Below are positions 35,027-55,568 of a DNA stretch of 64,000 nt, piece by piece (position 1 is the first letter of the stretch; every line of letters starts with the position of its first letter). This DNA is from Candidatus Latescibacterota bacterium (lineage in GTDB: Bacteria; Latescibacterota; UBA2968; GCA-2709665). The notes under the pieces were generated by a model, which did no database searches, was not told the origin of the DNA, and was given only the letters and a program-made list of their open reading frames with translations. The stretch spans positions 5,344,001 to 5,408,000 of the forward strand of contig OZ241917.1 of the NCBI GenBank assembly GCA_965203805.1, in the 5' to 3' direction. The translations under genes and the position numbers were made by a program.

Positions 35027-35170
35027 TTTTGAAGGTGGGGCCTGCCTGCCAAAGCGTCACCGGCAGGCGCAGGCAGGCAGACATTCCTGTCTGCCGACAT
35101 CGATGTTTTGCTGTTGATGAAGAGACATAATGGAAGACCACTGCGCCATCACTCCCCCCTTGAGGGGAGT
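35027..35170. repeat. ~140-bp composite repeat, copy 1 of 3 (REP-like GGCAGACATTCCTGTCTGCC with inserted 37-bp CCTGCCTGCC..GGCAGG element)
   Basis: Similar copies at ~35890-36032 and ~36540-36666; a degenerate version without the insert at ~30961-30995. Confidence 0.85.
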
Positions 35171-35388
35171 CGCCTGGCTGCGTCCGCAGGACAGGCAGGC
35201 AGAAGCCGAGCCGTTCCCTGAGCTTGTCGAAGGGCCGGCGACGGCTGATGCGGTGGGGGGTGCTGTTGAATTCCGCGGGAAGGCAAGTTTGGAATTGCAC
35301 CGATGGTGCAACGGACATAAAAATCACCACTTGGCATTTGTATCCAACAATGACCTAACTTCACAATAATAGGTATCTTATACGCCTT

Positions 35389-35889: not shown

Positions 35890-36032
35890 TTTGAGGGTGG
35901 GGCCTGCCTGCCAAAGCGTCACCGGCAGGCGCAGGCAGGCAGACATTCCTGTCTGCCCACATCGAGTTCTTGCTGTCGATAAAGAGACACCAGGAAAGAC
36001 CGCCGCGTCATCACTCCCCCCGTTAGGGGAGT
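35890..36032. repeat. Composite repeat, copy 2
   Basis: Same sequence as copy 1; mini-element at 35903-35939. Confidence 0.85.
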
Positions 36033-36037
36033 CGTAC

Positions 36038-36539: not shown

Positions 36540-36666
36540 GTTTGAAGGTGGGGCCTGCCTGCCTGCCAAAGCGTCACTGGCAGGCGCAGGCAGGCAGACA
36601 TTCCTGTCTGCCGACAACGATGTTTTATTGTCGATGCAGAGACATTAGGATAGACCGCGGCGCCAG
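36540..36666. repeat. Composite repeat, copy 3
   Basis: Mini-element at 36554-36594 with one extra CCTG. Confidence 0.85.
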
Positions 36667-36699
36667 TTTTTCCACGCAGTTGGTCCCCGTCGGGCTAGC

Positions 36700-36850: not shown

Positions 36851-36851
36851 C

Positions 36852-37579: not shown

Positions 37580-37605
37580 CGCTCTTGTCCGCTCTTGTCC
37601 GCTCG

Positions 37606-37801
37606 ATGGGATACTGACGTGTGAAGGCCAGATGGCCAGGCGCAAGGTTGTCAGGTATGCCGATTCGTCGGCTCTGGTAAAGTCACAGCCGTACCTGACC
37701 GCCTGTATTTGATAGAAACCGAGGATTATCCCTCGGTATTTGTACGTGAGCAGACAGGAATGTCTGCTCCACCCTCTAAAACTCTGGCTCGTCGCATCGC
37801 G
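37606..37801. other. ~195-bp non-coding, hairpin-rich duplicated element (copy 2 at 39718-39912)
   Basis: Near-identical copies, each flanked by two 75-bp repeats; nested stems. Confidence 0.75.
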
Positions 37802-38054
37802 TTGGCGCGCAGCACGTTGGTTCTCCTGTCCCGCAATCAGACCCTCTCCCTTTGGGAGAGGGTGGCGCGCAGCGCCGGGTGAGGGTGCCTTGCCTCCCCG
37901 CCTACCCATTAGGGCAAGAGTGATGCACGATATCGTGGCGCGGTACCACGGTTCACGGGCAGGCGGGAGTCTCAATGACGGTTTTGGTCCTCACGGTCGG
38001 AGGAGTCGCAAAATGCGCCTTGACAATCGTGACTACCGCATCTATTTTTCCCAC

Positions 38055-38636: not shown

Positions 38637-38826
38637 TACCGCCCGTCAGTTGGCAGACGCCCCTTAACAAAAAATCGGTACCCACCGACCACGTCATCCG
38701 GCATAGGTGTAGCCCTTGTTGTCGCCCATTTCGCTCGGATATTCCTCTAACACCCCGACGGCCATGAGCGATTGAGAGAAACGCCAAATCAGGTGCTCGA
38801 TCTGCCGGTTCCCGGTTTTAACGTAC

Positions 38827-38903
38827 AAAACCAAAACAGGCCTGCGCAACGTCGCGCAAGCCTGTTTTTGATTTCATGGTGGATCTGGTCAGGATCGATC
38901 CGT
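38827..38903 (-). repeat. att-like degenerate copy of tRNA-Ala 3' end plus terminator hairpin
   Basis: Aligns with 55851-55927 (aaaaccaaaacaggcctgcgc..gcgcaagcctgttt..tggtgga.ctg.tc.ggatcga.ccg). Confidence 0.85.
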
Positions 38904-39076
38904 CTACCGCCGCGCTTCCACCTCGTTATCACTGTCCTGCCACGGAAGCTCTGGTTTTCGCAACGGACTCGCCGCCTTCAAGCATTCCCCGATCATGAGA
39001 GTCTATGGCCTCCCGAATTTCGTCGAGTGATGCTTTTTTGCGGCAGCCGGCTATGTCGCGATAAATCGCGGCGCCC

Positions 39077-39610
39077 TCACCCTTGCCCTCTCCCAGTGGG
39101 AGAGGGATTGATTGCGTCTGCGATTTCGCTCAGGGCTTCCAGGGTGTGCAGCAGCATGTGTTTGTTTCTAATTCGGACGACGGTCAACCCGAGAGATTTC
39201 AGAAATGCGTCGCGATTTCTGTCCGTCGTGCGGCGCTCATCGGACTCGTGGACCGGTCCATCCAGTTCCACGACGAGCCGTTTCTCGTGGCAGTGGAAGT
39301 CAACGATATAGTTACCGATCTGATGCTGGCGACGGAACTTGAGGCCAAGGAACCGTCGGTCCCTGAACAGTTCCCACACAAAGTCTTCCGCGGGAGTCGG
39401 CCTCTGCCGCATCTCCCGTGCCCGTTCCAGCAACCCGTAAAGTTTCTCCCCGCCTCCGAATTGACCCGCTTCCTCCGTTGCGGATTGGTGCGAAGCTTGT
39501 TGGTGGCTGCTAATGCCGGTCCCCTCCGCCACCGAACGACCCTCTCCCTCTGCGAGAGTATGGCGCGAAACTTCCTTCTGAGCATCGCTTCGGTTCACCT
39601 GTCCCCACAT
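39077..39610 (-). CDS. DUF559 endonuclease, copy 2
   Basis: Same core as copy 1; C-terminus INPSPTGRGQG is encoded by a palindrome. Confidence 0.88.
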   Translation of the reverse strand: MWGQVNRSDAQKEVSRHTLAEGEGRSVAEGTGISSHQQASHQSATEEAGQFGGGEKLYGLLERAREMRQRPTPAEDFVWELFRDRRFLGLKFRRQHQIGNYIVDFHCHEKRLVVELDGPVHESDERRTTDRNRDAFLKSLGLTVVRIRNKHMLLHTLEALSEIADAINPSPTGRGQG

Positions 39611-40021
39611 TCATACCCTCTCCCTTTGGGAGAGGGTGGCGCGCAGCGCCGGGTGAGGGTGCTTCTGCCCCACGAGGGTGACGCGCAGCGTCGGGTGAGG
39701 GCGCTTTTGTCCGATCAATGGGATACTGACGTATGAAGGCCAGATGGCCAGGCGCAAAGTTGTCAGGTATGCCGATTCGTCGGCTATGGTAAAGTCACAG
39801 CCGTACCTGACCGCCTGGATTTGATAGAAACCGAGGTTTATCCCTCGGTATTTGTACGTGAGCAGACAGGAATGTCTGCTCCACCCTCTAAAACTCTGGC
39901 TCGTCGCATCGCGCACGCAATTTCATGCTGCACATCGCGTCGGTCCCCCTGTCCCCACATTCATACCCTCTCCCCTTGGGAGAGGGTGACGCGCAGCGTC
40001 GGGTGAGGGCGCTTTTTACCC

Positions 40022-43000
40022 TCACGCCACCGCCCATCCCTCCGACAGCGCCTCCGCCTGTTCGATCACCGTCTGCGTGGCCTTTTCCTGCTTGTCTGGA
40101 GGATAGCCGTGCCTGCGCAGGATGCGCTTGACAAGGCGCCGCAGGTTTGCGCGGACGTTCTCGCGCAACGTCCAGTCGATGGTGACATTGTTGCGGACCG
40201 TTTCGACGAGTTGGCGGGCGATGTCGCGGAGCGTGTCGTCACCGAGCACCTGCACCGCGCTGTCGTTCGTTTCCAGTGCATCGTAGAAGGCCAGTTCCTC
40301 CTCCGAAAGCCCCAGCCGTTCGCCCCGTTCGTTCGCCTCCCGCATCTCTTTCGCCAGTTCGATCAGTTCCTCGATGACCTGCGCCGCCTCGATCGCGCGG
40401 TTCTGATACCGCCTCAGGGTCTGCTCCAGCATTTCGGCAAACGAACGGGCCTGCACGACGTTCTTGCGCCGCCTTGTGGAAACCTCGCCCTTCAGCAGCT
40501 TCTGCAGGAGTTCGATGGCCAGGTTGCGGCGCTCCATGCCGCGGACCTCGGCCAGGAACTCGTCCGACAACACCGAAATGTCGGGCTTTTCGAGGCCGGC
40601 CGCGGCGAAGATATCCATCACGCCCTCCGAGGCGACGGCGCTGGAGACGATCTGACGCACGGCAAGGTCCAACTCCTCCTGGGTATGTTTCTCGTCAGTC
40701 GTTCGCTTGGACAGGGCCGAACGGACGGCCTGGAAAAACGCCACGTCGTCCCGGATGCGCCGCGACTCCGGATGAGGCACGGCCAGCGCGTAGGCCTGGG
40801 ACAGCGCCCGCACCGCGTTCAGCCACCGGTCCTTGCCGTCTACCTGGGCCAGGACGTGTTCCTGGGCGGCAGGAAGCAGATTCAATCGCTCCGCCGGCGT
40901 GCCGTCGGTCCACGCGGCCCAATCGAACCCGTGCAACAGGCCGCAGCAGACCTCGTATTTCTCCTGCATCACCGCAACCGCTTCTCTCTGGTCCACGGCC
41001 GTATCGCCTGTGCCGCCGCTCTCGGTATACGTAGCCAATGCATGTTTCAGGTCCTGGGCGAGTCCCAGATAGTCCACGACGAGCCCGCCGGGCTTGTCCT
41101 TGAACACGCGATTCACCCTGGCGATGGCCTGCATCAGTCCATGGCCGCGCATCGGTTTGTCCACGTACATCGTGTGCAGGCTGGGCGCGTCGAACCCCGT
41201 CAGCCACATGTCCCGGACCAGCACAACCCGAAGGGGATCGCCGGCGTCTCTGAACCGGTTCGCAAGAGCCTCCCTGCGTGGCTTATTTCGGATGTGCTGC
41301 TGCCATTCGGGCGGATCGGATGCGGAACCGGTCATTACGACCTTGATCGATCCCCCTTCGTCAGCGTCACTATGCCAACCGGGACGCAGTCGGACCAGTT
41401 CGCGGTAGAGGTCGATGCAGATGCGGCGGCTCATGCAGACGACCATCGCCTTTCCGTCCAGCGCTTCGAGGCGCTGCTGGAAGTGGTTGACGATGTCCGA
41501 GGCGATCTGCTTGATCCGATTTTCTGCGCCGACGACCGCCTCTAACTGCGCCCACTTCGTCTTGAGCTTCTCCCGCCGCTCCACCTCTTCGCCCTCGGTG
41601 GCTTCCTCGAAATCGGGGTCGATCTTCGGCTTTTCGCGCTCGTCGAGGGACAGTTTCGCGAGGCGGCTTTCGTAGTAGATGGGCACCGTGGCCCCGTCCT
41701 GAACGGCGCGCCGGATGTCGTAGATGCTGATATAGTCGCCGAAGACAGCCCGCGTATTGGCGTCCTGAAGTTCTATCGGTGTCCCGGTGAAGCCGACGAA
41801 GGAGGCGTTGGGCAGGGCGTCTCGCATATGTCGCGCAAACCCGTCGATGAAGTCGTACTGGCTTCGGTGGGCCTCGTCGGCGATCACTACGATGTTGCGC
41901 CTGTCCGACAATTCAGGATGGCTGTCGCCCTTCTCTTCGGGGAAGAATTTCTGGATGGTGGTAAAGACCACACCCCCGGCGTTCACCGACAGCTTGTTCC
42001 TCAAGTCAGCCCGGCTCTCCGCCTGCGTTGGCGGCTGGCGCAACAGGTCCTGGCACCGCGAGAACGTGCCGTAGAGCTGGTCGTCCAGGTCGTTCCGGTC
42101 GGTAAGCACCACAACGGTTGGATTTTCCATTGCCGGTTCGCTGATGATGGCGCCGGTATAGAAAGCCATCGTCAGGCTCTTCCCCGACCCCTGCGTATGC
42201 CATACGACGCCGACGCGCCGGTCGCCGGGCTCTCCGCCGGGTTTCTGCCCCGTCTCGTACCTTCCACCGGTGTCCACGGATCGGTCAACTTTGCGGTGTA
42301 ACTCCGCTGCGCGAAGCGTTTCGTCAACCGCGTACCTCACCGCGTGGAACTGGTGATAACCCGCCATTTTCTTTTCCAGCGCGCCGCTGCCGTCGTCGTC
42401 GAAGACGATGAAGTCGCGTACGAGCGCAAGGAAACGGTTCTGTTCGAAGACGCCTTCCAGCATCACCTGAAGCTCGGCCAGGTGCTGGTCGGCCAGCGTC
42501 TCCCCGGCAACCGTGCGCCATGGCTTGAACCACTCCTTGCCCGAGGTCAGCGTGCCGATTCGGGCTTCCGTCCCGTCCGAGACCACGAGCATTTCATTCA
42601 TGGAGAACAGTGCGGGCAGTTCGGTCTTGTACGTCTGTAGCTGGTTCCAGGCCGTCCAGATTGTGGCGTCCTCGTCGGCCGGATTCTTCAGTTCGATGAT
42701 TCCGAGTGGCAGACCGTTGACAAACAGCACGATATCCGGCCTGCGGTTGTTGCTGTTTTCCGTGACAGTGAACTGATTGACCGCCAGCCAGTCGTTCCTG
42801 TCGGGTCTTGCGAAGTCAATGACGCGAACTTGGTCGCCGCGCACGTTTCCGCTGGAATCTCGATATTCGACGTTGACGCCGTTTACGAGCATCCGGTGAA
42901 ACGAACGGTTTCTTGCTTCCAGGGTCGATCCTTCGGGACGGGTCAGCATGCGGCACGCGTCGTCCAGGGCGGACAGGGGCAGGGAGGGGTTCAATTCAGC

Positions 43001-43165
43001 GAGGACGTCGCGAAGCCTGTGCTCCAGAACCACCTGTCGGTAGTCATCGCGCTCTGCGTCAGGCGTCTCCGGCGCGATATCCGGTCCGTGCAAAACCTGC
43101 CATCCGAGACCGGAGAGCCAGTCAAGAGCCGCCTGCTCGACGTCCGCTTCGGTGAGGGTGGTCAT
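40022..43165 (-). CDS. hsdR: Type I restriction endonuclease subunit R
   Basis: [61 protein letters not shown]. Confidence 0.96.
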
Positions 43166-43581
43166 GGGGGTTCCCAGGGGTTGACAATACGGACGTTCAA
43201 GTTGTCGAAGTCCCTCACGTTGCGAGTGACGACCGCCATATCGTTGGCCATCGCGGTTCCAGCTATGAGCGCGTCGCCAAGTCCCAACTCGCCGCCGCTC
43301 CGATGTACGCGCGCCTGCAGTACAGCAGCCCACTCGGCTTCCCGCCTCCCAATCGGCGATATGCGCCCTTCAAAGTCCGCCAGGAGCAGAGACAGCCATC
43401 TTCTTAAACTGTCACGGCGTCGGCCGTCCGGGAGGAGTTGCAAACCCAGTTCAAGTTCTTTGACGACGATAGCCGGAAGCCACAGATCATCCCCGGCGTT
43501 AAGATAGTCAATGACGGCTTGGTTCGGATTCTCCTTCGTCAGCTCCGAGACCACGTTCGTATCCAGGAGAAAACCGCTCAT
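43162..43581 (-). CDS. vapC: VapC-family PIN toxin
   Basis: [29 protein letters not shown]. Confidence 0.9.
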
Positions 43582-43856
43582 TCGTCTGATTCCTCGATGA
43601 AGGGAATCTTGCGGCCACTCTCGCGACGCCCAGGGATTTCAAGGTTCGTGCCGCGCGGCGTGTTTTCAACCAGCCACTGACCCAAGGGGATGGACGCCTG
43701 GTCTCGAGACTTCCATACGCGCTCGGGTACGACGACGAATGGCTTCTGCGCGCCGATGCGTTGCGGCCCCTCCTCCTCGGCAAGGCGGAGGATTTCGGAT
43801 AGCCGGGCCTTCGCCTCGGCCACGGTCCAGACACGTTGGGAATTGGTTTTTTGCAT
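43578..43856 (-). CDS. Phd/YefM-family antitoxin
   Basis: WTVAEAKARLSEILRLAEEEGPQRI; overlaps the vapC start. Confidence 0.88.
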   Translation of the reverse strand: MQKTNSQRVWTVAEAKARLSEILRLAEEEGPQRIGAQKPFVVVPERVWKSRDQASIPLGQWLVENTPRGTNLEIPGRRESGRKIPFIEESDE

Positions 43857-43984
43857 CGTGCATCTCCCCGTGAACGTCGATGTGGTCTAATACAGAAGAT
43901 CTTACTGGATCAAACTCGATTTGCTTTCCGTGCGATGACGTTGCGGCGCACAGACCTCCCTCTTCGCAGCGCGACGACTGGACG

Positions 43985-44308
<324 letters not shown>

Positions 44309-44312
<4 letters not shown>

Positions 44313-44587
44313 TCGTCTGATTCCTCGATGAAAGAAATCTTGCGGCCACTCTCGCGACGCCCTGGGATTTCAAGGTTCGTGCCGCGCGGCGTATTTTCAA
44401 CCAGCCACTGACCCAAGGGGATGGACGCCTGGTCTCGAGACTTCCAAACGCGCTCGGGCACGACGACGAATGGCTTCTGCGCGCCGATGCGTTGCGGCCC
44501 CTCCTCCTCGGCAAGGCGGAGGATTTCGGATAGCCGGGCCTTCGCCTCGGCCACGGTCCAGACGCGTTGGGAATTGGTTTTTTGCAT
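44309..44587 (-). CDS. Phd/YefM-family antitoxin, duplicate
   Basis: One residue differs from 43578-43856. Confidence 0.88.
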
Positions 44588-44715
44588 TGTGCATCTCCCC
44601 GTGAACGTCGATGTGGTCTAATACAGACGATCTTACTGGATCAAACTCGATTTGCTTTCCGTGCGATGACGTTGCGGCGCACAGACCTCCTTCTTCGCAG
44701 CGCCACGACTGGACG

Positions 44716-44943
44716 CTATTCGCTCAAGGGCGCTATCCGTTCCTTTTCCAACTCGGCAGCGTAGAGCAGGGTCGCGTGCACCGCCTCGCGCGATACGGAC
44801 GGATAGTTCTCGACGATCTCCTCAGCACTCAACCCTTCTGCCAGGCTGTCCGGAATGACCGTCGCCATGACCCGCGTGCCGGTAATGCAAGCCTTTCCGT
44901 GGCATATCGTGGGGTCTGATGAAATGTATTCTTGCCACCTCAT
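44716..44943 (-). CDS. DUF433 domain protein, duplicate
   Basis: Close paralogue of 43985-44212. Confidence 0.88.
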   Translation of the reverse strand: MRWQEYISSDPTICHGKACITGTRVMATVIPDSLAEGLSAEEIVENYPSVSREAVHATLLYAAELEKERIAPLSE

Positions 44944-45061
44944 ACTAACCCTCCTGGGCGTTCGGATCGTCTATGAAGGCCCGGTCCGGATTTTCCTTCG
45001 TCAACTCCGAACGAAGCATTCGCGCCAACGTACGTCGCACGAGGGTCGCCACGGCGTCCGC

Positions 45062-45304
45062 CTAGATTGCCGCCGCAATCGTTCGGGCATGCGTGAGATC
45101 AGCGCCATTAACGGGACGTGCGTGTGAGGGCGCCACGGTTGCTATATCCACCGTGGCGCCATCCAGAGACATGAACTCCACCACGAAGGCTGCTTTATCG
45201 CGATGGACGTGGATGATGGTGCCCACGTCGCCCGGTTTCAGTTCCTCCCCCTCGTCACCACGAACATCAGCGGTAAGTACGATTTGCTCATGTTCCTTGA
45301 ACAC
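45062..45304 (-). CDS. DUF4926 domain protein
   Basis: LKPGDVGTIIHVH...FVVEFMSLDGATVDIATV. Confidence 0.8.
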   Translation of the reverse strand: MFKEHEQIVLTADVRGDEGEELKPGDVGTIIHVHRDKAAFVVEFMSLDGATVDIATVAPSHARPVNGADLTHARTIAAAI

Positions 45305-45307
45305 TTC

Positions 45308-45646
45308 TCACCTCCTGCGTGGGTACGCGGTAATGAACCTGGGATGTACACTCCCGGTGTCAACTTGCCAGACGGTCCTTATTACGGGATTGCGCCCGTC
45401 CGGTGTCTCTATCCTGCCGTCAACATGATAGCGCGAACCGTATGCGGTCTCCGCAACTCGGGCGACCTCATGGGATGCGGCATGTTTTTTCAATGCCACC
45501 GAGAATTCCTCCCAGCGGTCTACGCTGAACCCGAACCTAAGGAAATAATCTGCCTTGGCTCTGCCACGCGGATTGACGGCCGTCAGCAGATAGTTCGTGA
45601 TCTTTCCCCGTTCGATCTGCGCCTGACGCACATTGGGTAGTTTCAA
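45308..45646 (-). CDS. DUF6883 domain protein (putative toxin partner of DUF4926)
   Basis: KLPN..A.I...KITNYLL..NPRGRAKA.YF..FGF..TPDGRNP.IRTVW..PRFITAYP; TTG start. Confidence 0.75.
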   Translation of the reverse strand: MKLPNVRQAQIERGKITNYLLTAVNPRGRAKADYFLRFGFSVDRWEEFSVALKKHAASHEVARVAETAYGSRYHVDGRIETPDGRNPVIRTVWQVDTGSVHPRFITAYPRRR

Positions 45647-45659
45647 TCGTCGCCTCTTG

Positions 45660-45833
45660 TCAGGCTGCTTCGCAGCAAGTCCGGATGTTCGTCGTGAACT
45701 CCAGCACTTCGGATACACCGGTTCCGGCCACGGTTGAGATCTTATCAAGCATCAGGGACACACTAACCGGTTCGTAGGCCACGTGCCAGACGAGGACCGA
45801 CTACTCGACGGCCGCTTCCGTGAGGGTGGTCAC
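45660..45833 (-). pseudogene. Degenerate 5' fragment of hsdR
   Basis: GTG-TTLTEAAVE*SVLVW versus Hsd[17 protein letters not shown]; overlaps the ATPase stop. Confidence 0.7.
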
Positions 45834-47710
45834 TAGGTGCCTTTGAACTCTGCGGCTGTGAGATCTGAAGGGGTGGAGTTTATCACTTCCTCCATCAAAT
45901 CAAAGATCACCTGGAAACTCTTGAAGTCTTCATCCGTGCCATTATTGCAAAGCCACTCGCAGAGGTTCATTTTCTCGCTGCAATTGATAGTCCATGTCTC
46001 GGGAATAACGACTTCTATACCTCGCTTAGTGCTTTGATGTTCATGCTCAATGTCAATGAACGCCGGCTTATGCTGGCAAGCTTTATCCAATGTCGCCTTA
46101 CTGAACAAGTTCTCAATGCCTGCTTTTACTGGGTTACAGGGTTGTAATGGTACAGTGCGTTGAAAGAGGTTCCCTCTATCGCTGTTTCCCCTTTTCTCAT
46201 CGTAGTCGAATAGAAGTATCACTTTCTGAGGCATAAGATCGGCCATGGGGAGCTTAAAGCCTTTCCAAATGTTTGCCAAGTTCCCACTTCCACCACCGTC
46301 CCGGACTTCAAACCCGTTAATCAATGTCTCTCTTCCAAGTAGTTCTGCTGCCCTTTCTATGTACTTTGCGTCGGTTTCGCCCTCCGTCAACAAGATAGGC
46401 CCTTGAGCTTCTTGGACTGCTGTTCGCATGGCATCCGAAAACTTGACCGTTTCCGCAAACAACTGATATGCGTCTCCGAACTCACTGAACTCTTCGGCGC
46501 TAATTTGGTGTCCTTGAGGAAGGCGATATAGAGCAACGCCATCTTCTCCAAAGACCCTCTGCATGCCCAGAACAAATAGAGGCGAGTGTGTGGTTACAAC
46601 GAACTGAACCTTGGGGAACATCATGATGAGTTCAGGAAGAACTTCATACTGGTGAATCGCATGCAGGTGCAGGTCTATCTCATCCACCACGGTGATACCG
46701 CGAATGTCGGACGTGCTAGAAAATGGTGTGCCGCACAAGTCGAAGTCGCGTAGGATAGATAGGAACAGATTCAAGAGAGAGGTTTCCCCACTGGACAACT
46801 GAAAGATGTTTGGTACTATCTGCCTCGTTTGTGAACCATCGTCTGACATGATCGAAACAACTCTATTAGGTCGCCTACCGATCCCAAATCTGATCTCTTG
46901 CTTCCTTGCTATCGTTCTTACAATTCGCAGTGCCGTCTCGTATGAGTTAGCTGCATTTCCCGAGTATCCCAAGAACAAAGGGAATGGGACCGTCGTATTG
47001 CCATCCTTTATTGGCAGATTTACATGCTGCGTCTGAAGCTCAAAGGCAGCCCGATCATAGACCACATCAAATAACCAGTCTTGGTTTTCATGGAGCGGCG
47101 AAGATGCGATAACTCTACGACCGGTGTGGCCGGCGAGATTCCTTGTATCTCCATATCGAGCTTGGGCCTTCAAATTCTCCTCGTTCAACCACGCCGGTTC
47201 CTCAAAACGATTGAATGGGAAGTATAGGACAGAGTTTTTCGCGAATATCTCTTCGATTCTTCTCGTGGTGGTAGGATCAGATGTAAGGTTCGACTCGTAA
47301 TGGTCGTTCTCAGCGGGACTGATCTTCTCCCAAATGGCCTCGGCGGCGGTCCCTGAAATTCCCATGGGAACGTCAGAATACTCTTTTTTGTTACGCCACG
47401 TCCTTATTTCACTGACAAAGAAATCGCCATCAAAGTCAACTCTGCCGAAGTAGTATTCACTTCCCGGCTTGATGTAAGAACTACTACGGAGCTTGTATAC
47501 TTTGCCGGTCTCTACTTCTGGCGTTTCTGGGTAAGCGATACCTTTAGCCGCAAGCAGTCCGTTTACAATATGTGATAGCAGTATGCTCTTCCCAGAGCCG
47601 TTTTCACCCACCAAGACGACCGGCTTTGGAGTCTCGCCGTCGAAGGGAAATTCAATGTCGAGATTCTCGATGGGCCCGTAATTCGTCAGTTGTATTCGCT
47701 TTGTATACAT
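45833..47710 (-). CDS. ABC-type ATPase fused to TOPRIM-like domain (OLD-like putative defence nuclease)
   Basis: GENGSGKS, LSSGE, VVDEIDLHLH, TTHSP; C-terminal LLTEGETD and LLFDYD; lower GC. Confidence 0.75.
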   Translation of the reverse strand: MYTKRIQLTNYGPIENLDIEFPFDGETPKPVVLVGENGSGKSILLSHIVNGLLAAKGIAYPETPEVETGKVYKLRSSSYIKPGSEYYFGRVDFDGDFFVSEIRTWRNKKEYSDVPMGISGTAAEAIWEKISPAENDHYESNLTSDPTTTRRIEEIFAKNSVLYFPFNRFEEPAWLNEENLKAQARYGDTRNLAGHTGRRVIASSPLHENQDWLFDVVYDRAAFELQTQHVNLPIKDGNTTVPFPLFLGYSGNAANSYETALRIVRTIARKQEIRFGIGRRPNRVVSIMSDDGSQTRQIVPNIFQLSSGETSLLNLFLSILRDFDLCGTPFSSTSDIRGITVVDEIDLHLHAIHQYEVLPELIMMFPKVQFVVTTHSPLFVLGMQRVFGEDGVALYRLPQGHQISAEEFSEFGDAYQLFAETVKFSDAMRTAVQEAQGPILLTEGETDAKYIERAAELLGRETLINGFEVRDGGGSGNLANIWKGFKLPMADLMPQKVILLFDYDEKRGNSDRGNLFQRTVPLQPCNPVKAGIENLFSKATLDKACQHKPAFIDIEHEHQSTKRGIEVVIPETWTINCSEKMNLCEWLCNNGTDEDFKSFQVIFDLMEEVINSTPSDLTAAEFKGT

Positions 47711-47720
47711 CGGTTTTTTC

Positions 47721-49190
47721 TCAGTTCGATTGAACTTCGATATCTCCCGACACCAGCTTCGGCAGTAGCGCATCACGCTGGGCGGTGAGGGCGAGTGATT
47801 CCTTGCGGTTGAACTCCATCTGAGCAAACAAAGGGCTAACCAATATGCTGAACTCATTCCAGGTTTCTGCGGGTGGGTTGGGAAGAGTGTAGGGAGCTAA
47901 TGCGTCACCCTGGACGCGTTGCCGTCCCGATGTACCTGTCATGCTCTGAATCGCGTGTTCCCGGAACGCCATTTCACGGGCCAAGAGGTATGTGTACTCA
48001 GGTGGAACAGGTGGAATGGCCCGTAACACAATGAATTCTGTCGATCCCCAACCCACAGTGTCATCTGACAACAATTGGACGAAAGCGGTCTTGCCGTTTT
48101 CCAAACAGGGCGTTATGCGTGCAAACAAAGTATCTCCGTCGCGAAAGCGCGTACCGGACTTAAACTCTCGCAACACCGGAGTGCTTGGACTAGACCCAAA
48201 CGTCGGAAGGGATGCCATATCAAGGTATGGTGCCACGGTCCCCCGCTTCATTGGCTCTGTGGGATTCAACTCCACCACCTCCCCCAATGCCTTAACCTCC
48301 CACCCCTCCGGTATCTCGCCCAATTCCGAGTCGACAAAGTGATTGGGAAACAGCGCCGCGATGGACGGATCCATTTTGTCGAGATACGCGTGCGCCCGCT
48401 TCACAGTCCATCCCGGTGACCCTTTGCCGTCAGTTACCCCTTGGGCGGGAATCGTGCCGTGATGAGCGTCCGATCCCGAGCCAGCGTGTTTTCGGAGCGT
48501 GGCTTTGGCGTGGACAGGATCGAAGTCGACGAACCAGGACTTGAAGAGCGTCCGCGCCAACTCCTCCAGCGTTTCGTTCATCCGCCGGTTCAACTCAATT
48601 TTGTTGTCCAACGTGCCCAGTACATGGGCGATTTCCCTTTGCTCCCGTAGGGGAGGGATGGAGATTTCCAGAGACTCAATCATCCCTTTCGTGAGGGCAT
48701 TTCGAGTGCCCCCTGAACCTGCCCAAGACAGTAGTAGGGTCTGCATTTCCGGAGACACGAGGCAGTAGCGCAGATACCCCGCATCGAGATTGACTGAGTC
48801 CGGCCGGATGATCGCCACATGTTGATTGACGCGCGCAGGCAGCACGTCTGGCACAACCTGACACACCCTGGCGACCGAATCGCCCGTGATGTTGAGCAGT
48901 ACGTCGTTCTCGAAGACCTCCACGTTTCGTAACTCATCGGCATGATGTTCACCGATAAACGCCAAACCATCGCGATGGAAGCCATCGTTGTACACGTTCT
49001 GGCTGCGTATCAAGCTATAGGGACCGTCTTGCAGGTAGACATCCTTCCCGCCACGTGGCGTCGCACCGCTGCCAATCTTGGCACATACATCACCGAGCAG
49101 GACCTCCCGCCACTTGCTCTGAGGGTCCGTGTTATCCATGCTCACTCCACCTTGCAGAACCCTGTAGTCTTGCGTAGCCACAATCGCCAT
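47721..49190 (-). CDS. hsdS: Type I R-M specificity subunit (start may be 49139)
   Basis: IPPLREQREIAHVLGTLDNKIELNRRMNETLE, FKSWFVDF, GEIPEGW, RDALLPKLVSG. Confidence 0.95.
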   Translation of the reverse strand: MAIVATQDYRVLQGGVSMDNTDPQSKWREVLLGDVCAKIGSGATPRGGKDVYLQDGPYSLIRSQNVYNDGFHRDGLAFIGEHHADELRNVEVFENDVLLNITGDSVARVCQVVPDVLPARVNQHVAIIRPDSVNLDAGYLRYCLVSPEMQTLLLSWAGSGGTRNALTKGMIESLEISIPPLREQREIAHVLGTLDNKIELNRRMNETLEELARTLFKSWFVDFDPVHAKATLRKHAGSGSDAHHGTIPAQGVTDGKGSPGWTVKRAHAYLDKMDPSIAALFPNHFVDSELGEIPEGWEVKALGEVVELNPTEPMKRGTVAPYLDMASLPTFGSSPSTPVLREFKSGTRFRDGDTLFARITPCLENGKTAFVQLLSDDTVGWGSTEFIVLRAIPPVPPEYTYLLAREMAFREHAIQSMTGTSGRQRVQGDALAPYTLPNPPAETWNEFSILVSPLFAQMEFNRKESLALTAQRDALLPKLVSGDIEVQSN

Positions 49191-49195
49191 TCCCC

Positions 49196-49438
49196 TCAGT
49201 TCGATATCCGTCGCAAGACCAGAGCATCGACCACATCGGCGCCGTCACGCGCGCTGCCATTCGGGCCGGGGTCTCCGTGCCTACCTTCCCAATCGCGCCT
49301 CCCGGTGTTCAAGGCTATCTTGACCAGTGACATCTGCTCCGGCGCCAGGTCGTCATACCCTTCTTCGTAACCGTTCACCACTACGCGCAGGTCAGGTGGG
49401 TAGTTTGCCAACAGTTGTACCAGTTCAGCAACGGTCAT
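49196..49438 (-). CDS. Hypothetical protein, 80 aa
   Basis: GGAGG RBS, ATGA overlap; MTVAELVQLLANYPPDLRVVVNGYEEGYDD. Confidence 0.65.
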   Translation of the reverse strand: MTVAELVQLLANYPPDLRVVVNGYEEGYDDLAPEQMSLVKIALNTGRRDWEGRHGDPGPNGSARDGADVVDALVLRRISN

Positions 49439-49656
49439 GCTTCCTCCATGAGGGCGTCAACCTCAAGACTGAGGGTTGTAAGATCGGTTTCAATGACAAA
49501 CCGCACTGCCCGGTCGTTCACGTCAGCGTAGCCGTGGATCAGTATATTGCGAAAACCGATGATCTGCTCGTACTCGCTTATCCGGGAGACAATTTGCGGG
49601 GCAAGTTTTGCCAGACGATTCACTGCTTCACCGATGAATACATATTCCCACTCCAA
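49435..49656 (-). pseudogene. HepT/DUF86 HEPN ribonuclease, N-terminally truncated at a 75-bp repeat
   Basis: IGEAVNRL...IIGFRNILIHGY (RxxxxH). Confidence 0.8.
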
Positions 49657-49758
49657 TGCAACGCGTCACATTGGTTCTCCCGTCCAACAATCAGACCCTC
49701 TCCCACTGGGAGAGGGTGACGCGCAGCGTCGGGTGAGGGCGTGCCTCGTAGCACTGGA

Positions 49759-49932
49759 CTAAGGCACCAGCTCGCCGTCTTCCCTCATTCCCTCGATGTG
49801 AAATTCAATGGCCTCCCGAATCTCTTTGAGCAATTCTGCCCTGGTGTTCGCGGTGGCGACGCAGCCGGGCAGGTCGGTTACGTAGGCCGCGTCGTTGTTC
49901 GGGATCCTCTCGATCACAACGGTATATTTCAT
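49759..49932 (-). CDS. hicB: HicB-family antitoxin (short), copy 1
   Basis: MKYTVVIE..AYVTDLPGCVATA..EIREAIEFHIEGMREDG. Confidence 0.8.
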   Translation of the reverse strand: MKYTVVIERIPNNDAAYVTDLPGCVATANTRAELLKEIREAIEFHIEGMREDGELVP

Positions 49933-50042
49933 AGTCTGAATTCCTTGCTCAAACCCAATGGTCACAAGATGCTGTTCAACTCTCACGGAGGCAATCAACG
50001 TTTACTAACGCACCCGCCGGATTGTCGTCGAAGATTGCGATG

Positions 50043-50666
50043 CTAGGACTCCTCTACCCAAAAGGGCTGGCATAGCTCTGCGGAGATATCCCTTGTTAAT
50101 TCGGGGTAATCGGCGCACAGAACATCGGGTGTTATTTCGCCTATACGTTTCTTGCGGTATACGCGGATGCGTTTAACAGCTTCAGTCAGTTTAGGAATGA
50201 GTGGTTTGACGAGTTTTTCCGCTGTAGCATACGGTTCTTCATGACACGCCGCCTCAGACACTCGATCATTCTGGAACCACGTCGCGAGACCCTCTTCGAG
50301 CACGTTAGCAGTACGCCCCTCGATTTTCGGACACCATGGGTCGAGTAGGTGGACGCATTCATGCGCAAGCTGCCACCTCGCACGGATTGGGTCCGTAAGC
50401 GCGTTTTTGTTTAGACGGATAACAATGTGTTTCGACCTTCTTTCCACGCCACCTGTTGCAATGCCGCTGTTTGGAAACCAGATCATTGGCGGATTGTCTG
50501 GAGTTTTGTCTATGTCGATACCGACCAAAGTAAACGAGTGGTCACGCTGCCCGAACAAGCGTTCAATGTCCGCCAAGAATTGACTGGTCCACTCGGTCAG
50601 CGGTATTGGGCTATAGCTGCCGTCCTTCGTGTACTTGGTAACAAATAGTGAATCGATGACACTCAT
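50043..50666 (-). CDS. Hypothetical HExxH (zincin / ImmA-IrrE-like) protein
   Basis: WQLAHECVHLL...LEEGLATWF. Confidence 0.6.
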   Translation of the reverse strand: MSVIDSLFVTKYTKDGSYSPIPLTEWTSQFLADIERLFGQRDHSFTLVGIDIDKTPDNPPMIWFPNSGIATGGVERRSKHIVIRLNKNALTDPIRARWQLAHECVHLLDPWCPKIEGRTANVLEEGLATWFQNDRVSEAACHEEPYATAEKLVKPLIPKLTEAVKRIRVYRKKRIGEITPDVLCADYPELTRDISAELCQPFWVEES

Positions 50667-50671
50667 AGGTG

Positions 50672-50992
50672 TTATCCAAATCCAAGCTGCTTCAGGTTCG
50701 CCTCAATCGCAGCATCCAGCTTCGCGGCTTCGGCCTGCTGTTCGCGCCACTGCTTCGCGAGACGGGCCATCTTCTCCTCAAAGGGTTCGCCATCGTCTTC
50801 CTGCGGTTCCGCGCCGACGTAGCGGCCGGGCGCGAGGACATGGCCGTGTTTGCGTATCTCTTCGAGCGATGCGCTTTTGCAGAAGCCGGGTATGTCGCGG
50901 CAAACCGCGACGCCCTGGCCCTCACCCGGCGCGATAGGCTGGCGCGTAGCACGTTGCTGCCCCTCACTTCTGTTCCCCTGTCCCACAATCAT
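50672..50992 (-). pseudogene. Duplicate 3' end of hsdM lacking the GIY-YIG insert; ORF opened by an ATG in the 75-bp repeat
   Basis: [46 protein letters not shown]...LGFG. Confidence 0.9.
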
Positions 50993-51118
50993 ACCCTCTC
51001 CCCTTGGGAGAGGGTGACGCGCAGCGCCGGGTGAGGGTGCTTCGCCCCCCCTCGGGTGACGCGCGGCGCCGGGTGAGGGCGTCTTTGATTCTACAGCTTT
51101 GCGCCCTCATTCTGGATC

Positions 51119-51643
51119 TCACCCGGAGGGAGAGGGGTTTACTGCGTCTGCGATTTCGTTCAGGGCTTCCAGGGTGTGCAGCAGCATGTGTTTGTTTCTA
51201 ATTCGGACAACGGTCAATCCCAGAGATTTCAGAAATGCGTCGCGGTTTCTGTCCGTCGTGCGGCGCTCATCGGAGTCGTGGACCGGTCCATCCAATTCCA
51301 CGACCAGCCGTTTCTCGCGGCAGTAAAAGTCAACGATGTAGTTGCCGATCTGATGTTGGCGCCGGAACTTGAGGCCGAGGAACCGTCGGTCCCTGAACAG
51401 TTCCCACGCGAAATCTTCCGCGGGAGTCGGCTTCTGCCGCATTTCCCGTGCCCGATCCAGCAGCCGGAAAAACTCCGGACCACCCCTGTAATGACCCTGC
51501 TCTTCAGGTAGTGCGTGTTGCGCAGCTTGTTGATGGCTGCCACCACCGGTCGCCTTGTCCACCGAACTACCCCCTCCCCTTACGACAGAATCGCGCGCAT
51601 CTTCTTGCAGCACATCGCATTGGTTCCCCTGTCCGACAATCAT
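51119..51643 (-). CDS. DUF559 endonuclease, copy 3
   Basis: Same core motifs; ATG lies within the 75-bp repeat. Confidence 0.88.
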   Translation of the reverse strand: MIVGQGNQCDVLQEDARDSVVRGGGSSVDKATGGGSHQQAAQHALPEEQGHYRGGPEFFRLLDRAREMRQKPTPAEDFAWELFRDRRFLGLKFRRQHQIGNYIVDFYCREKRLVVELDGPVHDSDERRTTDRNRDAFLKSLGLTVVRIRNKHMLLHTLEALNEIADAVNPSPSG

Positions 51644-51707
51644 ACCCTCTCCCCTTGGGAGAGGGTGGCGCGCAGCGCCGGGTGAGGGTGTGCCTCGTAG
51701 CTCTGGA

Positions 51708-51881
51708 CTAAGGCACCATCTCGCCGTCTTCCCTCAATCCCTCGATGTGGAACTCGATGGCCTCCCGAATCTCTTCGATCAATTCTGCCCTGGTATTCGC
51801 AGTGGCGACGCAGCCGGGCAGGTCAGGCACGTAGGCCGCGTAGTTGTTCGGGGTCGCCTCGATCACGACGGCATATTTCAT
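51708..51881 (-). CDS. hicB: HicB-family antitoxin (57 aa), copy 2, not in the ORF track
   Basis: MKYAVVIEATPNNYAAYVPDLPGCVATANTRAELIEEIREAIEFHIEGLREDGEMVP. Confidence 0.8.
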   Translation of the reverse strand: MKYAVVIEATPNNYAAYVPDLPGCVATANTRAELIEEIREAIEFHIEGLREDGEMVP

Positions 51882-51960
51882 GGGTTGATTTTCCTGTTCG
51901 GGCCGAACTGCGACAGGTTGCGGCCACGGGAGTCTTCGTTCGAGGCGATAGCGCCGCGTT

Positions 51961-53700
51961 TCACGCCTCGAATGGCCGATATTCCACCAATGCCGACCGT
52001 CCTACAATCTCCACGATCCGCACGGTTATCTCGACGCCATTGACATCGGTGAGCCGCAAGTCTTCGCCAAGCACGAAATGCACCGGCTGCTGTTGGCCCT
52101 GGTTGATGGCGATGTTCGAGGCGTAGAGATATGTCCGGTCAAGGTTGTCTCGAATCGGATTCAGCGATCCTTTCAGCCCAGGAATTCGGCCGCGGTCTTC
52201 GGAAAGAATGACGCCGCCGCCACCGGGAAGCGGATCGAGTTCGATGGTGAGCGTTCCTTCCGACGGTATCCAGTCGCGTTCGCAGTGTGCGGCAAAACCG
52301 TGAACAGCGGCGAATACGGTCATTGGCAGATCAACCGTATGCAGGCCAATCATGGCCTGGCCCAACGCGTCTGTTGTGGCCTGTTTCCACGTCTTGTTCG
52401 GGAACAGCACCAGTACCTCTGCCTTAGCAAGCGGCTGGTCGCCAACACACACATTAATCAGCACGCGGGCCGGACTCGGCTCGGTGGAGGCCGCCGGTAG
52501 GGTGACGCGAAGGTCAGCGCCCCCAACCAGATCAAACTGCGGCAGACGCCCGGCGAGTTCCCGGGTTTCTCTGCGAATGACGGGGACGCCGTCACCACGC
52601 CGTTCCATGATGAAAAGTCGCCCGCCCGCCCCCTGGATCCCACTGGTTGGCATCCGGCCGAAGACCGAGGCAAGGACCTCGTTACGGGTTGCCTGGCGAA
52701 ATTCCAACTCTTCAACGGTGAGACTATTGGCGAGTGCGCCGGGTGACTGGATTTCCACGCGGTCGGCAAACATGGACAGGCGAATCCGGCTGCCGTGCAT
52801 CGAATAATCGCGGTGCGCCACGGCATTGGCGATAGCCTCGAAAAGGGCTTCTGCGCTGTATTGTGGCAAATCCATGCGTGCCGGGTCCTTGTAGGCTCCA
52901 ACGCGCATATTGCGCACGGCAAAGGCGACCGCTTCGGCAATTTGCCGGTTGAGGGGGCCGGTAATTGTCTGAGTGTCGAGTTGGCCGGAGGCTCGATCCG
53001 TGCCTCGATAATGGGTGGCCGTAATGCAGGCGTTGGGCAGCCATTCTTCCGGTGTGTGGCAGCAAAAGAGGAGGCCGGCGACAGTCGCTCGCACGGTTTC
53101 GTGTTCATCGAGTCCGACGAGACCCATTTTTTCCAATGCGGTCTCGGGATCGGCCCTGCCTTCCGCGCTCAACAACGGTCTCCACAGGGCTTCGTCCAGC
53201 GTTCCCAAACCGGTGTTGGGCACCGGCTGCTTATCGAACCAAAGAAACCGCGCTTGTCCCCTGCGTTGCGCCAAGCGCAGCCGCTCATCGCTTGTCATGC
53301 GGCGTTTAGATCCGCCTACCCGAACATAGCTGCCGCCTGGACTATCATGCTGCGATTCGCTTTGAGGAACTTCGACCAGAAGAAAACTCTTTCCCACCAG
53401 TTCTCTGTGATAGGTGGTGATGCGAACGGCAGGTCCGATCGCGTCAGTGCTGACCTCGACCAGAAAAGAGTCCAACTCGACGATCTGTTTGCGTGACATG
53501 CCCTGAATTTCGCCTGTGTCGGTCACGCCACACAGGAGTGCGCCGCCGGCAGTGTTGGCAAATGCGGCGATCTCGTCGGCCCAATCATCGCGGCTGGGAC
53601 TCCTCGGTCGATCGCCCGAAAACTCGATCTGCTTAAATTCCCACTGGCTGTCCTCGCCCAGACGAAGTTGACGTTTGATATCATCGTCAGTGTAGGTCAT
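51961..53700 (-). CDS. Schlafen/AlbA_2 domain plus RecG-C-like (HATPase_c_4) protein with extra C-terminal domain
   Basis: [52 protein letters not shown]. Confidence 0.8.
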
Positions 53701-55568
53701 CGATCGTCTCCAAAGCCAAGCTTTCTCAGATTCTTCTCAATAGCCGCATCCAGCTTAGCGGCTTCGGCCTGCTGTTCGCGCCACTGCTTCGCGAGACGGG
53801 CCATCTTTTCCTCAAAGGGTTCGCCGCCTGCCTGCCGAGCCCGTCCTTCAGCAATAATCCTCTTCAGCCAACGCCGTCCTGCCGAGGTTTTTAGCTCCCG
53901 CTCACGCGCCACGGCTTCCGCACGGCTCTTGAATTCTTCATAGTGAGGGATGTATCGGGGTCGGTTTTTCTTGGTCCAGTCTGCGGCCCTTCCGGCTACA
54001 TGCTCTTTCCATCGCCGGGGTATGTTGTCTGTATGACCAACGTAAAGGCTTCCACCCTCGCAGGAAATAACGTATACGAAAAACAATCCGGGACTCGGCG
54101 CAGGCAGGTCGTCCGGCTGCGGTTCCGCGCCGACGTACCGGCCGGGCGTGAGGACGTGACCGTGTTTACGTATCTCTTCGAGCGATGCGCTTTTGCAAAA
54201 GCCCGGAACATCGTCGTATCCCTCTCCGTTGCGCCATGCGTGGTAGGTGTCCGCGACCTTGGCGATGTCTTCCGGCGAGAGGTCCCTGTGCGTCCGGTCG
54301 ACCAGATGGCCCAGCTTTCGGGCGTCGATGAAGAGGGTTTCGCCATTGCGAACCCTCGCCCCTCTCCCGGGTGAGGGTGCCCGCGACAGAAACCACAGAC
54401 ACGCGGGGATCTGCGTCGACCGGAAGAGCTGGCCGGGCAGGGCGACGATGCAGTCCACGAGGTTGGCCTCGATGATATTCTTTCGGATCTCCCCCTCGTT
54501 CGACTGGTTGGACGACATGGAGCCGTTGGCCAACACGAAGCCTGCGGTGCCGCGCGGCGCGAGGTGATAGAGGAAATGCTGCACCCAGGCGAAGTTGGCA
54601 TTGCCGACAGGCGGGACGCCAAATTCCCACCGCCTGTCCTCGCGCAGCCTGTCGCCGCCCCAGTCCGACACGTTGAAGGGCGGATTGGCGAGGATGTAGT
54701 CGGCCTTTATGTCCGGATGCCGGTCGTTGTGGAAGCTGTCCCCGTGCTCGATTCGGCCGTCGATGCCCCGAATCGCCAGGTTCATCCTTGCCATTCGCCA
54801 CGTGGTGTAGTTGGACTCCTGTCCGTAGATAGAGATATCGCCCCTTCCTCCGCCTGCTGCGTTGCCGTTTCCGGAGGTATGGGCGTCAATGAACGCCATT
54901 GACTGCACGAACATCCCGGAGGAGCCGCAACACGGGTCGTAGACCCGCCCCTTGTAGGGCTCCAGCATCTCAACAAGCAGACGCACCACGGAACGCGGGG
55001 TATAGAATTCACCGCCTTTCCGGCCCTCAGCCAGTGCGAATTGCTCCAGGAAGTACTCGTACACACTGCCGAGCACGTCCGTCGCCCGGGCTTCTGCCCC
55101 GCCCACGTCAATGTTGGTAACCAGGTCCACCACCTGCCCCAGGCGAGTCTTGTCAAGGTTGGGGCGAGCGTAGTCCTTTGGCAAAACGTCCTTGAGCGCG
55201 GGATTGTCCCGCTCAATGGCGGCCATTGCATCGTCAACCGCACGTCCAATGGTGGGCTGGCGCGCCTGAGACTGCAGATTCTTCCAACGCGCTTCCGGCG
55301 GCACCCAGAAGATGCTCTGGGCGCGGTACTCGTCAGGATCTTCCGGATCCGCGCCTTCAGCGATTTCTTCCACGAGCCTGGCATGGGCTTCCTCGAACGC
55401 GTCCGAGATGTACTTGAGGAAGATGAGGCCCAGAACGACGTGTTTGTACTCCGCAGCGTCCATGCTGCCACGCAACGCGTCGGCCATTGCCCAGAGCCTG
55501 GATCTGAAATCCGTACTGGCACCGGTATCGGCATCCGTCCTGGTCTTTTTTCGTCGACCCTTCGCCAT
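53697..55568 (-). CDS. hsdM: Type I R-M methyltransferase subunit with in-frame GIY-YIG insertion
   Basis: [37 protein letters not shown]. Confidence 0.95.
53827..54108 (-). mobile_element. 282-bp GIY-YIG element with CCTGCCTGC/GCAGGCAGG inverted ends, inserted in hsdM
   Basis: [28 protein letters not shown]; removing it restores EPQPDDGEPF. Confidence 0.85.

Follow-up and report, generated by a model that had tools for sequence, protein, structure and literature searches.

A 282-bp GIY-YIG nuclease cassette with hairpin ends, inserted in frame in hsdM of a Candidatus Latescibacterota bacterium, and the gene-less mini-hairpins that share its ends

The window analysed here, 64,000 nucleotides of a Candidatus Latescibacterota genome (GenBank assembly GCA_965203805.1, contig OZ241917.1, positions 5,344,001 to 5,408,000), carries an hsdM gene, encoding the methyltransferase subunit of a type I restriction-modification (R-M) system, that is interrupted in frame by a 282-bp cassette encoding a GIY-YIG nuclease domain (Table 1). 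In the hsdM open reading frame (ORF), Pfam recognised N6_Mtase (1.3e-103), HsdM_N (1.5e-28), and GIY-YIG (8e-13, residues 497-562). The insert makes up residues 488-581 of HsdM, between EPQPDD and GEPF, and by itself scored 53.2 bits against PF01541 (cut-off 22.6; 3.6e-14). The original prediction, made from the letters of the window, had placed the element at the coordinates in Table 1 between the 9-mers CCTGCCTGC and GCAGGCAGG, and we reproduced both the coordinates and the bounding 9-mers. In the window, CCTGCCTGC occurs nine times where 0.63 occurrences are expected, a count reached in 0 of 100 shuffles.

Table 1. Coordinates and strands of the cassette, the mini-hairpins, and neighbouring features in the window
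Feature	Position	Strand	Remarks
GIY-YIG cassette	53827..54108	-	282 bp; 94-residue nuclease domain LPAPSPG...RARQAG, in frame in hsdM
Cassette end (3' in ORF sense)	53827..53840		+ strand letters CCTGCCTGCCGAGC
Cassette end (5' in ORF sense)	54094..54108		+ strand CTCGGCGCAGGCAGG; coding strand CCTGCCTGCGCCGAG, encodes (D)LPAPS
Host gene hsdM	53697..55568	-	Intact 623-aa ORF including insert; type I R-M methyltransferase subunit
Truncated paralogous hsdM 3' piece	50672..50992	-	Empty site GAC GA/T GGC between 50792 and 50793
Mini 1	35041..35077	-	37 bp, gene-less, same 9-bp ends, within a larger dispersed repeat; empty in G012 (L122); paralogous empty sites
Mini 2	35903..35939	-	37 bp; empty in G012 (L122), filled in G001 (L123)
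Mini 3	36554..36594	-	41 bp = 37-bp core + CCTG (37 bp from 36558); empty in G012 (L122) and G001 (L127)
Decayed mini	35173..35199	.	27 bp, CCTGGCTGCGTCCGCAGGACAGGCAGG
Free DUF559 ORF	51119-51643	-	One ~65-bp repeat, containing CCGGGTGAGGGTG, present on either side (50975-51039, 51626-51690)
hsdS	47721-49190		
Small ORFs between hsdS and the truncated hsdM 3' copy	49196-50666		Three small ORFs and a 207-aa ORF, no Pfam match
Schlafen/AlbA_2-HATPase_c_4 gene	51961-53700		Adjoins hsdM

The cassette has neither a start nor a stop codon of its own, and for that reason can be expressed only in one phase inside a host ORF. Its description as 282 bp, or 94 codons, in frame held for position, length, and frame, with the correction that the codons start one base inside the element: its first base, C, is the third base of the host codon GA/C, and its last two, GG, open a Gly codon that a host base finishes (slashes mark joints throughout). 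The two ends pair with each other: a stem of 9 bp is followed by a 2-nt GC bulge and then by a second stem. When the window cassette was folded as single-stranded DNA (ssDNA), the terminal stem was retained in both the minimum-free-energy and the centroid structure, and the overall fold energy was unremarkable (z = -0.26).

The 282-bp stretch is an insertion with exact borders. An empty allele had been predicted in the same window, and the truncated hsdM 3' copy, which matches the filled-site flanks at ~90-91% identity, indeed reads through without the insert. Further, 40 relatives (G001 and so on, G000 being the window's own genome) were searched with window positions 53400-54600, in which the element occupies query bases 428-709. 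Query bases 1-426 and 710-1201, or parts of them, lay one base apart in eight same-genus genomes (G012, G001, G011, G003, G004, G010, G006, and G009), and the same query was split around the element in further genomes as well. Empty sites read ...CAG CCG GAC GAT GGT GAA CCC TTT..., and the filled site reads ...CAG CCG GAC GA[C CTG CCT GCG ... CAG GCA GG]C GGC GAA CCC, with the element in brackets and no target base duplicated. That removal of the element restores the host sequence without a target duplication, as had been proposed, is thus borne out by same-genus hsdM orthologues in which the site is precisely empty. Among the relatives only G016, from another genus of the family, has a filled hsdM site; its cassette protein is 84% identical.

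By sequence comparison the encoded domain is assigned to the minimal GIY-YIG nucleases of the Slx1/UPF0213-like branch, its closest solved relatives being the UPF0213 proteins 1zg2 (5.7e-10) and 1ywl (3.8e-9), followed by SLX1 6seh (0.008). In a 14-sequence alignment Y22, R32, and E69 were invariant and Y12 and H36 were at least 90% conserved; all five are present in the window copy. We take these Tyr, Tyr, Arg, His, and Glu columns to be the GIY-YIG domain's catalytic residues, and the nuclease looks active, with an active site that is apparently intact. TIGR01453 gave only 17.8 bits on the insert (cut-off 56.05/56) and covered only residues 10-38. An I-TevI-type GIY-YIG homing endonuclease was considered and rejected, there being no match to a DNA-binding domain, no intron, and no reading frame of its own. 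Inteins contain a Hint domain and have Cys or Ser at the N-terminal junction and His-Asn followed by Cys, Ser, or Thr at the C-terminal junction; here Pfam gave only N6_Mtase, HsdM_N, and GIY-YIG, and the junctions, DD/LPAP and RQAG/GEPF, present L and G/G, so that an intein was rejected also. As no Rfam intron family matched either, the initial statement that intron and intein motifs are lacking stands.

The same cassette is found in many other proteins. Searched against 1.84 billion representative sequences, the domain had 5817 matches at E<=1e-3 and 347 at E<=1e-10. Among the best 150, 103 cover all 94 residues, 92 of these with at least 20 host residues on each side, and the borders are nearly always LP.P... 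and ...R.AG. The hosts of the first 100 matches are predominantly type I R-M subunits (57 HsdS, 3 HsdM, and 2 HsdR), together with six other DNA-modification or helicase-type proteins, 22 with no recognised family, and ten housekeeping or other proteins: trigger factor (2), MsrB (2), QueC, ArgRS, TfoX_N, NUDIX, an Ogt-type protein, and a hexose dehydratase. Some proteins also contain pieces of 11-12 residues, such as LPAPECKLRQAG, which are translated copies of the gene-less mini-hairpins ("minis") described below.

A DNA scan of one genome per species yielded 80 loci, 50 of them full length and mostly from metagenome-assembled records, with titles naming >15 phyla. The cassette measures 282 bp in 48 of these 50, and 45-50 of them agree at each of the first 13 and the last 12 bases, so that the termini are associated with the GIY-YIG gene elsewhere too, as anticipated. 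Preservation of the frame, which the original prediction had proposed to check in other genomes, held throughout: the open reading continues in frame on both sides in 50/50 loci, always in the same codon phase. The 20 host ORFs scanned all belong to recognised families, namely HsdR, HsdS, SNF2- and UvrD-type helicases, DUF1156, AlaRS, LeuRS, TatD, RibD_C, and DNA methylase. One cassette lies in hsdR of Pelomicrobium sp. G1 (L049), whose title bears no metagenome-assembled-genome label and which may be a cultured strain suitable for laboratory study. The 50 loci represent 25 distinct host sites with the consensus CGA^CGRC, and the hsdM site of the window accounts for 15 of the 50. Phages and plasmids were rejected as carriers, given just two weak partial cassette matches among viral contigs and no match at 1e-8 in the plasmid collection.

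The ends of the cassette are conserved as nucleotides and are under nucleotide-level selection. At third codon positions the majority base reaches a fraction of 0.90-0.98 in the first five codons and 0.84-1.0 in the last four, against a mean of 0.45 over the 82 interior third positions, only one of which reaches 0.9. In addition, the first three pairs of the second stem covary over 49 elements (CGC/GCG, CGA/TCG, CGT/ACG, CAC/GTG, and CTA/TAG). Because the covarying codons lie at opposite ends of the protein, the covariation points to pairing of the nucleic acid.

The minis of the window have the same ends. As predicted, the 9-mers that bound the cassette also delimit three 37-41-bp inserts, and the degenerate 27-bp one is present too (Table 1). 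The three share the flanks GTGGGG/.../CAGACATTCCTGTCTGCC, which were present as foreseen, and in the syntenic region of G012 all three are missing at exactly the predicted joints. At the place that matches the decayed mini, one locus of G001 (L127) is empty and another (L123) has an intact mini; in contigs of other sequencing runs, 35168-35236 is replaced by 20-29 different letters. A second hairpin family, GGCAGACATTCCTGTCTGCC (with the relatives CCTGCCTGT...CAGACAGG), adjoins the minis at 35078-35095, 35940-35957, and 36595-36612; it occurs genome-wide and is also nested inside minis, always between G and C.

The genome G000 is one closed contig of 5.87 Mb with 59% G+C, in which the 9-mer has 279 and 270 copies on the two strands. 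Short CCTGCCTGC...GCAGGCAGG hairpins form 123 loci, most commonly 33 bp long, and many are nested in each other or within larger repeats. They are spread over about 30 unrelated sites, with no homology between the flanks. BLAST found a paralogous empty site for 75 of the 123, that is, the joined flanks matched elsewhere in the genome, with no target duplication; the printed examples are mostly exact and ungapped (e.g., ggcgttg/cgctccc). The search for empty sites proposed with the original prediction thus found them for the cassette, in relatives, and for the minis, in G012 by synteny and in these paralogues. Some minis also lie in frame within transposase genes, one of DDE_Tnp_1_4 and two of DUF772 type, with empty paralogues. 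The simple minis have a length divisible by 3 in 91 of 123 cases and are stop-free in all six frames in 100 of 123, properties that suit them to coding DNA.

In sequence, the minis consist of the cassette's two ends joined together, as expected of the autonomous/non-autonomous pair that had been suggested. In G000, CCTGCCTGCGCCGAGTCC+TGCTCGGCAGGCAGG matches the ends of the genome's own cassette, and the commonest listed mini of G016 consists of the first 15 and last 16 bases of the consensus cassette with TT between them. About 40 G000 minis share the second stem of the window cassette (CGAG/CTCG; e.g., CCTGCCTGCGCCGAGTCCTGCTCGGCAGGCAGG), and other subfamilies differ in that stem. Being internal-deletion derivatives that keep only the ends, the 27-41-bp hairpins would be non-autonomous elements resembling miniature inverted-repeat transposable elements (MITEs). 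As in MITEs, the ends are shared with a gene-carrying partner, the copies are many, and their presence is polymorphic; the flanks of the minis, however, join exactly, without the target-site duplication of MITEs.

Minis with a 9-30 base interior were counted in 41 genomes, the backward-read control pattern giving zero everywhere. The two genomes in which the cassette was found hold 114 (G000) and 88 (G016); G015 holds 116, G001 107, G011 63, and G007 31, and in these four it was not found. Other members of the window's family, all with no cassette found, hold 0-17 each. The 19 genomes of the sister family, likewise with no cassette found, hold none in 17 cases and one and eight in the remaining two. 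Close relatives differ in the presence of both cassette and minis.

The cassettes cluster by place of insertion. In a tree of 49 cassettes the grouping by site is strict, with 20 label changes, the minimum, compared with a shuffled mean of 31.3; all 17 hsdM-site copies lie together to one side of a branch, and 0 of 500 shuffles gave so low a value. Sequencing runs X3, X4, X6, and X7, labelled as sponge and marine metagenome, contain contigs 90-99% alike to window positions 34900-54899. Filled hsdM genes were found on contigs of X3 and X7, the X7 copy being ~92-96% alike (records 31 and 32, mismatch counts), and a contig of X6 (record 24) stops matching exactly at the left border of the cassette. 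Other contig joints pass from the truncated hsdM 3' copy straight into the body of hsdM and may represent insert-free hsdM relatives; the contigs may stem from other organisms.

In a full-text literature search, which covered few subscription journals, no description was found of a GIY-YIG cassette of 282 bp that lies in frame, has terminal repeats, and gives rise to minis. The original statement that no such family had been described holds to that extent for the element as a whole, but two precedents qualify it, (i) the Ssn nucleases with their SRM hairpin repeats and (ii) a single domain insertion reported in 2006. Chenal et al. (2025, PMC11893778) link the Ssn proteins, a sister group of nucleases, to hairpin repeats: these 94-aa proteins, with GIY-YIG as their only domain, recognise and bind in ssDNA a hairpin repeat of their own and cut beside it; the ssn genes are flanked by NTS/SRM hairpin repeats, and the NTS-ssnA-NTS layout is called IS-like by those authors. 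On this account, the two systems are alike in having a GIY-YIG-only nuclease of about 94 residues whose gene is bordered by hairpin-forming repeats recurring tens to hundreds of times in the genome.

They also differ. The hairpin sequence is unrelated: the SRM pattern, HGTCWYN(0-2)YYVSBRHN(0-5)WNVSBRGN(0-2)RNCYNB, has 53 matches in the 5.87 Mb, none of which overlaps a mini, with 5.5 kb between the cassette and the closest; nor did the motif match the flanks of L080-L095, distant GIY-YIG genes that stand alone. In the present system a single split hairpin encloses the gene, whereas ssn genes, as described, lie between whole hairpins. Finally, Ssn are described as stand-alone proteins of about 94-150 aa, whereas the cassette has no start or stop of its own and is carried in frame in host genes, the 92 of 103 full-length matches counted above being internal to longer proteins. 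The Ssn family tree, according to the same source, left out proteins >150 aa, and the words 'in-frame', 'fused', 'fusion', and 'inserted' were not found in the main text of PMC11893778. Its criteria for assigning a protein to Ssn (cd10448) are blastp E<1e-10 over 75% of N. meningitidis SsnA or cd10448 as the top CDD hit, and Ssn cleavage is confined there to ssDNA next to the hairpin. Because the hairpin does not fit the published SRM motif, we treat Ssn as an analogy and do not claim membership.

The Rickettsia palindromic elements, said to have been described by Ogata and colleagues in 2000, rank with Ssn among the closest described systems; they are reportedly about 100-150 bp long and without a gene-carrying form, and so would differ from the combination of a 282-bp gene-carrying form and 27-41-bp minis seen here; the literature search found no paper combining 'GIY-YIG' and 'Rickettsia palindromic'. 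GIY-YIG homing genes and inteins resemble the cassette in being selfish nuclease genes at one conserved site with empty alleles in relatives, and inteins are likewise translated in frame; the cassette differs from them in having no DNA-binding domain, no intron, and ends that are palindromic and conserved as DNA. The REP/BIME-RAYT systems, and IS200/IS605 with the derivatives associated with their palindromes, share with it hairpin ends, insertion without target duplication, and a small autonomous partner accompanied by numerous copies that lack a gene (in part after passages of PMC11893778, otherwise as generally understood). Their HUH tyrosine transposase, however, can rejoin strands, and the cassette encodes a hydrolytic GIY-YIG nuclease only.

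The second precedent is that of Dunin-Horkawicz, Feder and Bujnicki (2006, PMC1564403), who reported an HsdR that had received one Slx1-like GIY-YIG domain as an insertion, and an 80% identical homologue without it, and remarked on the domain's 'ability to invade new loci'. The passages concerned describe a unique domain insertion and contain no terminal repeats, fixed length, frame rule, minis, or spread over host families. Set beside these systems, the cassette is a variant of the small nuclease with its own dispersed hairpin repeats, and would amount to a new class of element if GIY-YIG-driven transposition were proven.

We think it probable that this is a selfish mobile cassette moved by its own hairpin-recognising GIY-YIG nuclease, and that the minis are its non-autonomous derivatives. 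We infer that the GIY-YIG domain is the mobilising enzyme and that it acts on hairpin DNA, as well as how the strands are rejoined. In the proposed sequence of events, the cassette would remain in the host protein as an extra internal domain, and its imperfect terminal hairpin (the 9-bp stem, GC bulge, and short second stem) would provide the cis-acting sites. The nuclease would recognise the terminal hairpin, or a cruciform, much as Ssn proteins do hairpin repeats in ssDNA, and would cut at its base, and host repair or ligation would finish excision or insertion and leave no target duplication. The full cassette would mostly persist and spread as site-bound lineages in homologous host genes, chiefly those of type I R-M systems, with new sites rare, and the minis could multiply to >100 copies in some lineages.

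Several observations weigh against this proposal. GIY-YIG enzymes are hydrolytic on DNA, and none is known to join strands. The cassette is single copy in G000, and the clustering by site indicates that jumps to new sites are rare and that spread could ride on transfer of the host gene. Third-position identity between G000 and G016 at conserved four-fold-type residues is 0.60 (n=47) for the cassette and 0.48 (n=234) for the N-terminal part of hsdM, a similarity of divergence compatible with simple co-descent and loss. The hsdM genes of G001 and G012 are closer to that of G000 (0.78 and 0.71) yet are empty, so that the cassette was either lost precisely in close relatives or gained long ago. 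The mini-rich genomes G001, G015, and G011 have no cassette detectable with this query, which among the 41 genomes found it only in G000 and G016; conversely, ten cassette-bearing genomes of other groups hold just 0-7 minis, with at least one mini in 5 of the 10. These counts suggest that minis can outlive or outnumber the cassette and that their large expansions are lineage-specific. Two analyses that might have favoured single-strand transposition were negative. Strand bias, as a sign of single-strand transposition, was rejected because mini orientation does not differ between replichores (37 vs 30; 19 vs 15), a weak test since many copies lie in other repeats. Insertion into the loops of other palindromes was rejected as a general rule because 2 of 34 site clusters are surrounded by a stem of 5 bp or more, no enrichment over the 4.6% of control G^C sites. 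Finally, the target consensus may mirror insert-tolerant protein loops and not a preference of the enzyme.

The site-bound lineages, with all 17 hsdM-site copies on one side of a branch, are also what homing would produce: the nuclease would cut the empty duplex target (around CGA^CGRC in hsdM, hsdS, and others), repair would copy the cassette from a filled homologue, and the ends would not be recognised by the enzyme. The filling of the same hsdM site in 15 of 50 loci under many phylum names, and a target consensus that extends on both sides of the insertion, fit this scheme as well, and the two base differences beside the G000 insert (GAT GGT vs GA[..]C GGC) could be traces of co-conversion. 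We nevertheless regard homing as unlikely, as it leaves unexplained the nucleotide-level conservation and covariation of the ends and the dispersal of minis to about 30 unrelated sites whose flanks show no homology, and as the 94-residue protein is a bare catalytic domain lacking the DNA-binding domain of GIY-YIG homing enzymes.

The hairpins could alternatively owe their movement to a different enzyme, for instance a REP-associated tyrosine transposase or the host's replication and repair machinery, with the nuclease gene trapped in one hairpin as a passenger. Mini-rich genomes without the cassette agree with such an arrangement, as does the presence of two Y1_Tnp matches in the genome, one with a mini ~90 bp away. 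Chance capture, however, would not be expected to keep gene and ends together at a fixed length in 48/50 loci and across many phyla. The catalytic residues of the nuclease are conserved; moreover, a different repeat (GAGGGCA..TGCCCTC) belongs to the Y1 transposase gene at G000 4.5338 Mb and flanks it, and it is within one such repeat that the nearby mini lies. We consider this explanation improbable, more so than homing. A RAYT/HUH Y1 transposase was likewise rejected as the partner of the minis, since both Y1_Tnp matches lie elsewhere and the one examined has its own repeat. That the cassette is instead a non-selfish, recruited part of type I R-M or defence proteins, adding nuclease activity, is very improbable indeed: type I R-M subunits make up 62 of the 78 recognised hosts among the first 100 matches, hsdM is an intact ORF, and the catalytic residues are kept, but the same cassette sits in AlaRS, LeuRS, ArgRS, trigger factor, QueC, MsrB, TatD, and RibD_C proteins, is precisely missing from the closest relatives, and has palindromic, nucleotide-conserved ends and gene-less derivatives.

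Returning to movement by the cassette's own nuclease, we more tentatively suggest that the element may represent a new class of prokaryotic transposable elements, and the smallest autonomous one at 282 bp. Its sole product would be a GIY-YIG hairpin-specific nuclease translated only as a domain of host proteins. The element might home within type I R-M genes, occasionally jump into essential genes, and shed 27-41-bp hairpins into genomes and proteins of many phyla, which could make it a general source of short palindromic in-frame inserts in bacterial proteins. If the nuclease does move its own hairpin-bounded gene, it would use a transposition chemistry unrepresented among described bacterial insertion sequences, in an element of <300 bp. 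The cassette also shows how selfish DNA can live in essential and defence genes without splicing, adding folded domains and 9-12-residue loops to proteins, and it provides a candidate partner enzyme for a class of in-frame palindromic inserts. By analogy with Ssn, such elements would add hairpin-specific DNA cutters of new specificity. The genome G000 offers a good case for study, with a closed contig, one full cassette, >100 minis, and empty sites in close relatives.

Other nuclease and transposase genes were noted at the locus and elsewhere in the genome. In hsdM of G003 and G016 a DUF559 (Vsr-like endonuclease) domain is inserted in frame and splits N6_Mtase (loci L104, L111, and L022). This is a second in-frame nuclease cassette and, judged from split matches, lies at about the place where hsdM of the window has just the piece CCGGGTGAGGGTG (54367-54379); this piece recurs in the repeats that flank the free DUF559 ORF (Table 1). 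In one protein, P0014, DUF559 occurs in frame together with GIY-YIG. A Y1_Tnp (HUH transposase) match at G000:C1:4547970-4548200 (L107) lies within a 1252-aa open frame, with a hairpin, CCTGCCTGTGCGTTGCACGCAGACAGG, ~300 bp upstream, and may be another nuclease or transposase domain carried in frame in a large protein. A RAYT-like gene at G000:C1:4533400-4534260 (L106) has flanks formed by a palindromic repeat of its own, GAGGGCA(N)TGCCCTCG; of the half-sites, the genome contains 171 copies of CGAGGGCA and 204 of TGCCCTCG, and one CCTGCCTGC mini is inserted in one copy of this repeat. In the window, the small ORFs between hsdS and the truncated hsdM 3' copy may represent a toxin-antitoxin-like filling of the R-M locus, and hsdM is adjoined by the Schlafen/AlbA_2-HATPase_c_4 gene.

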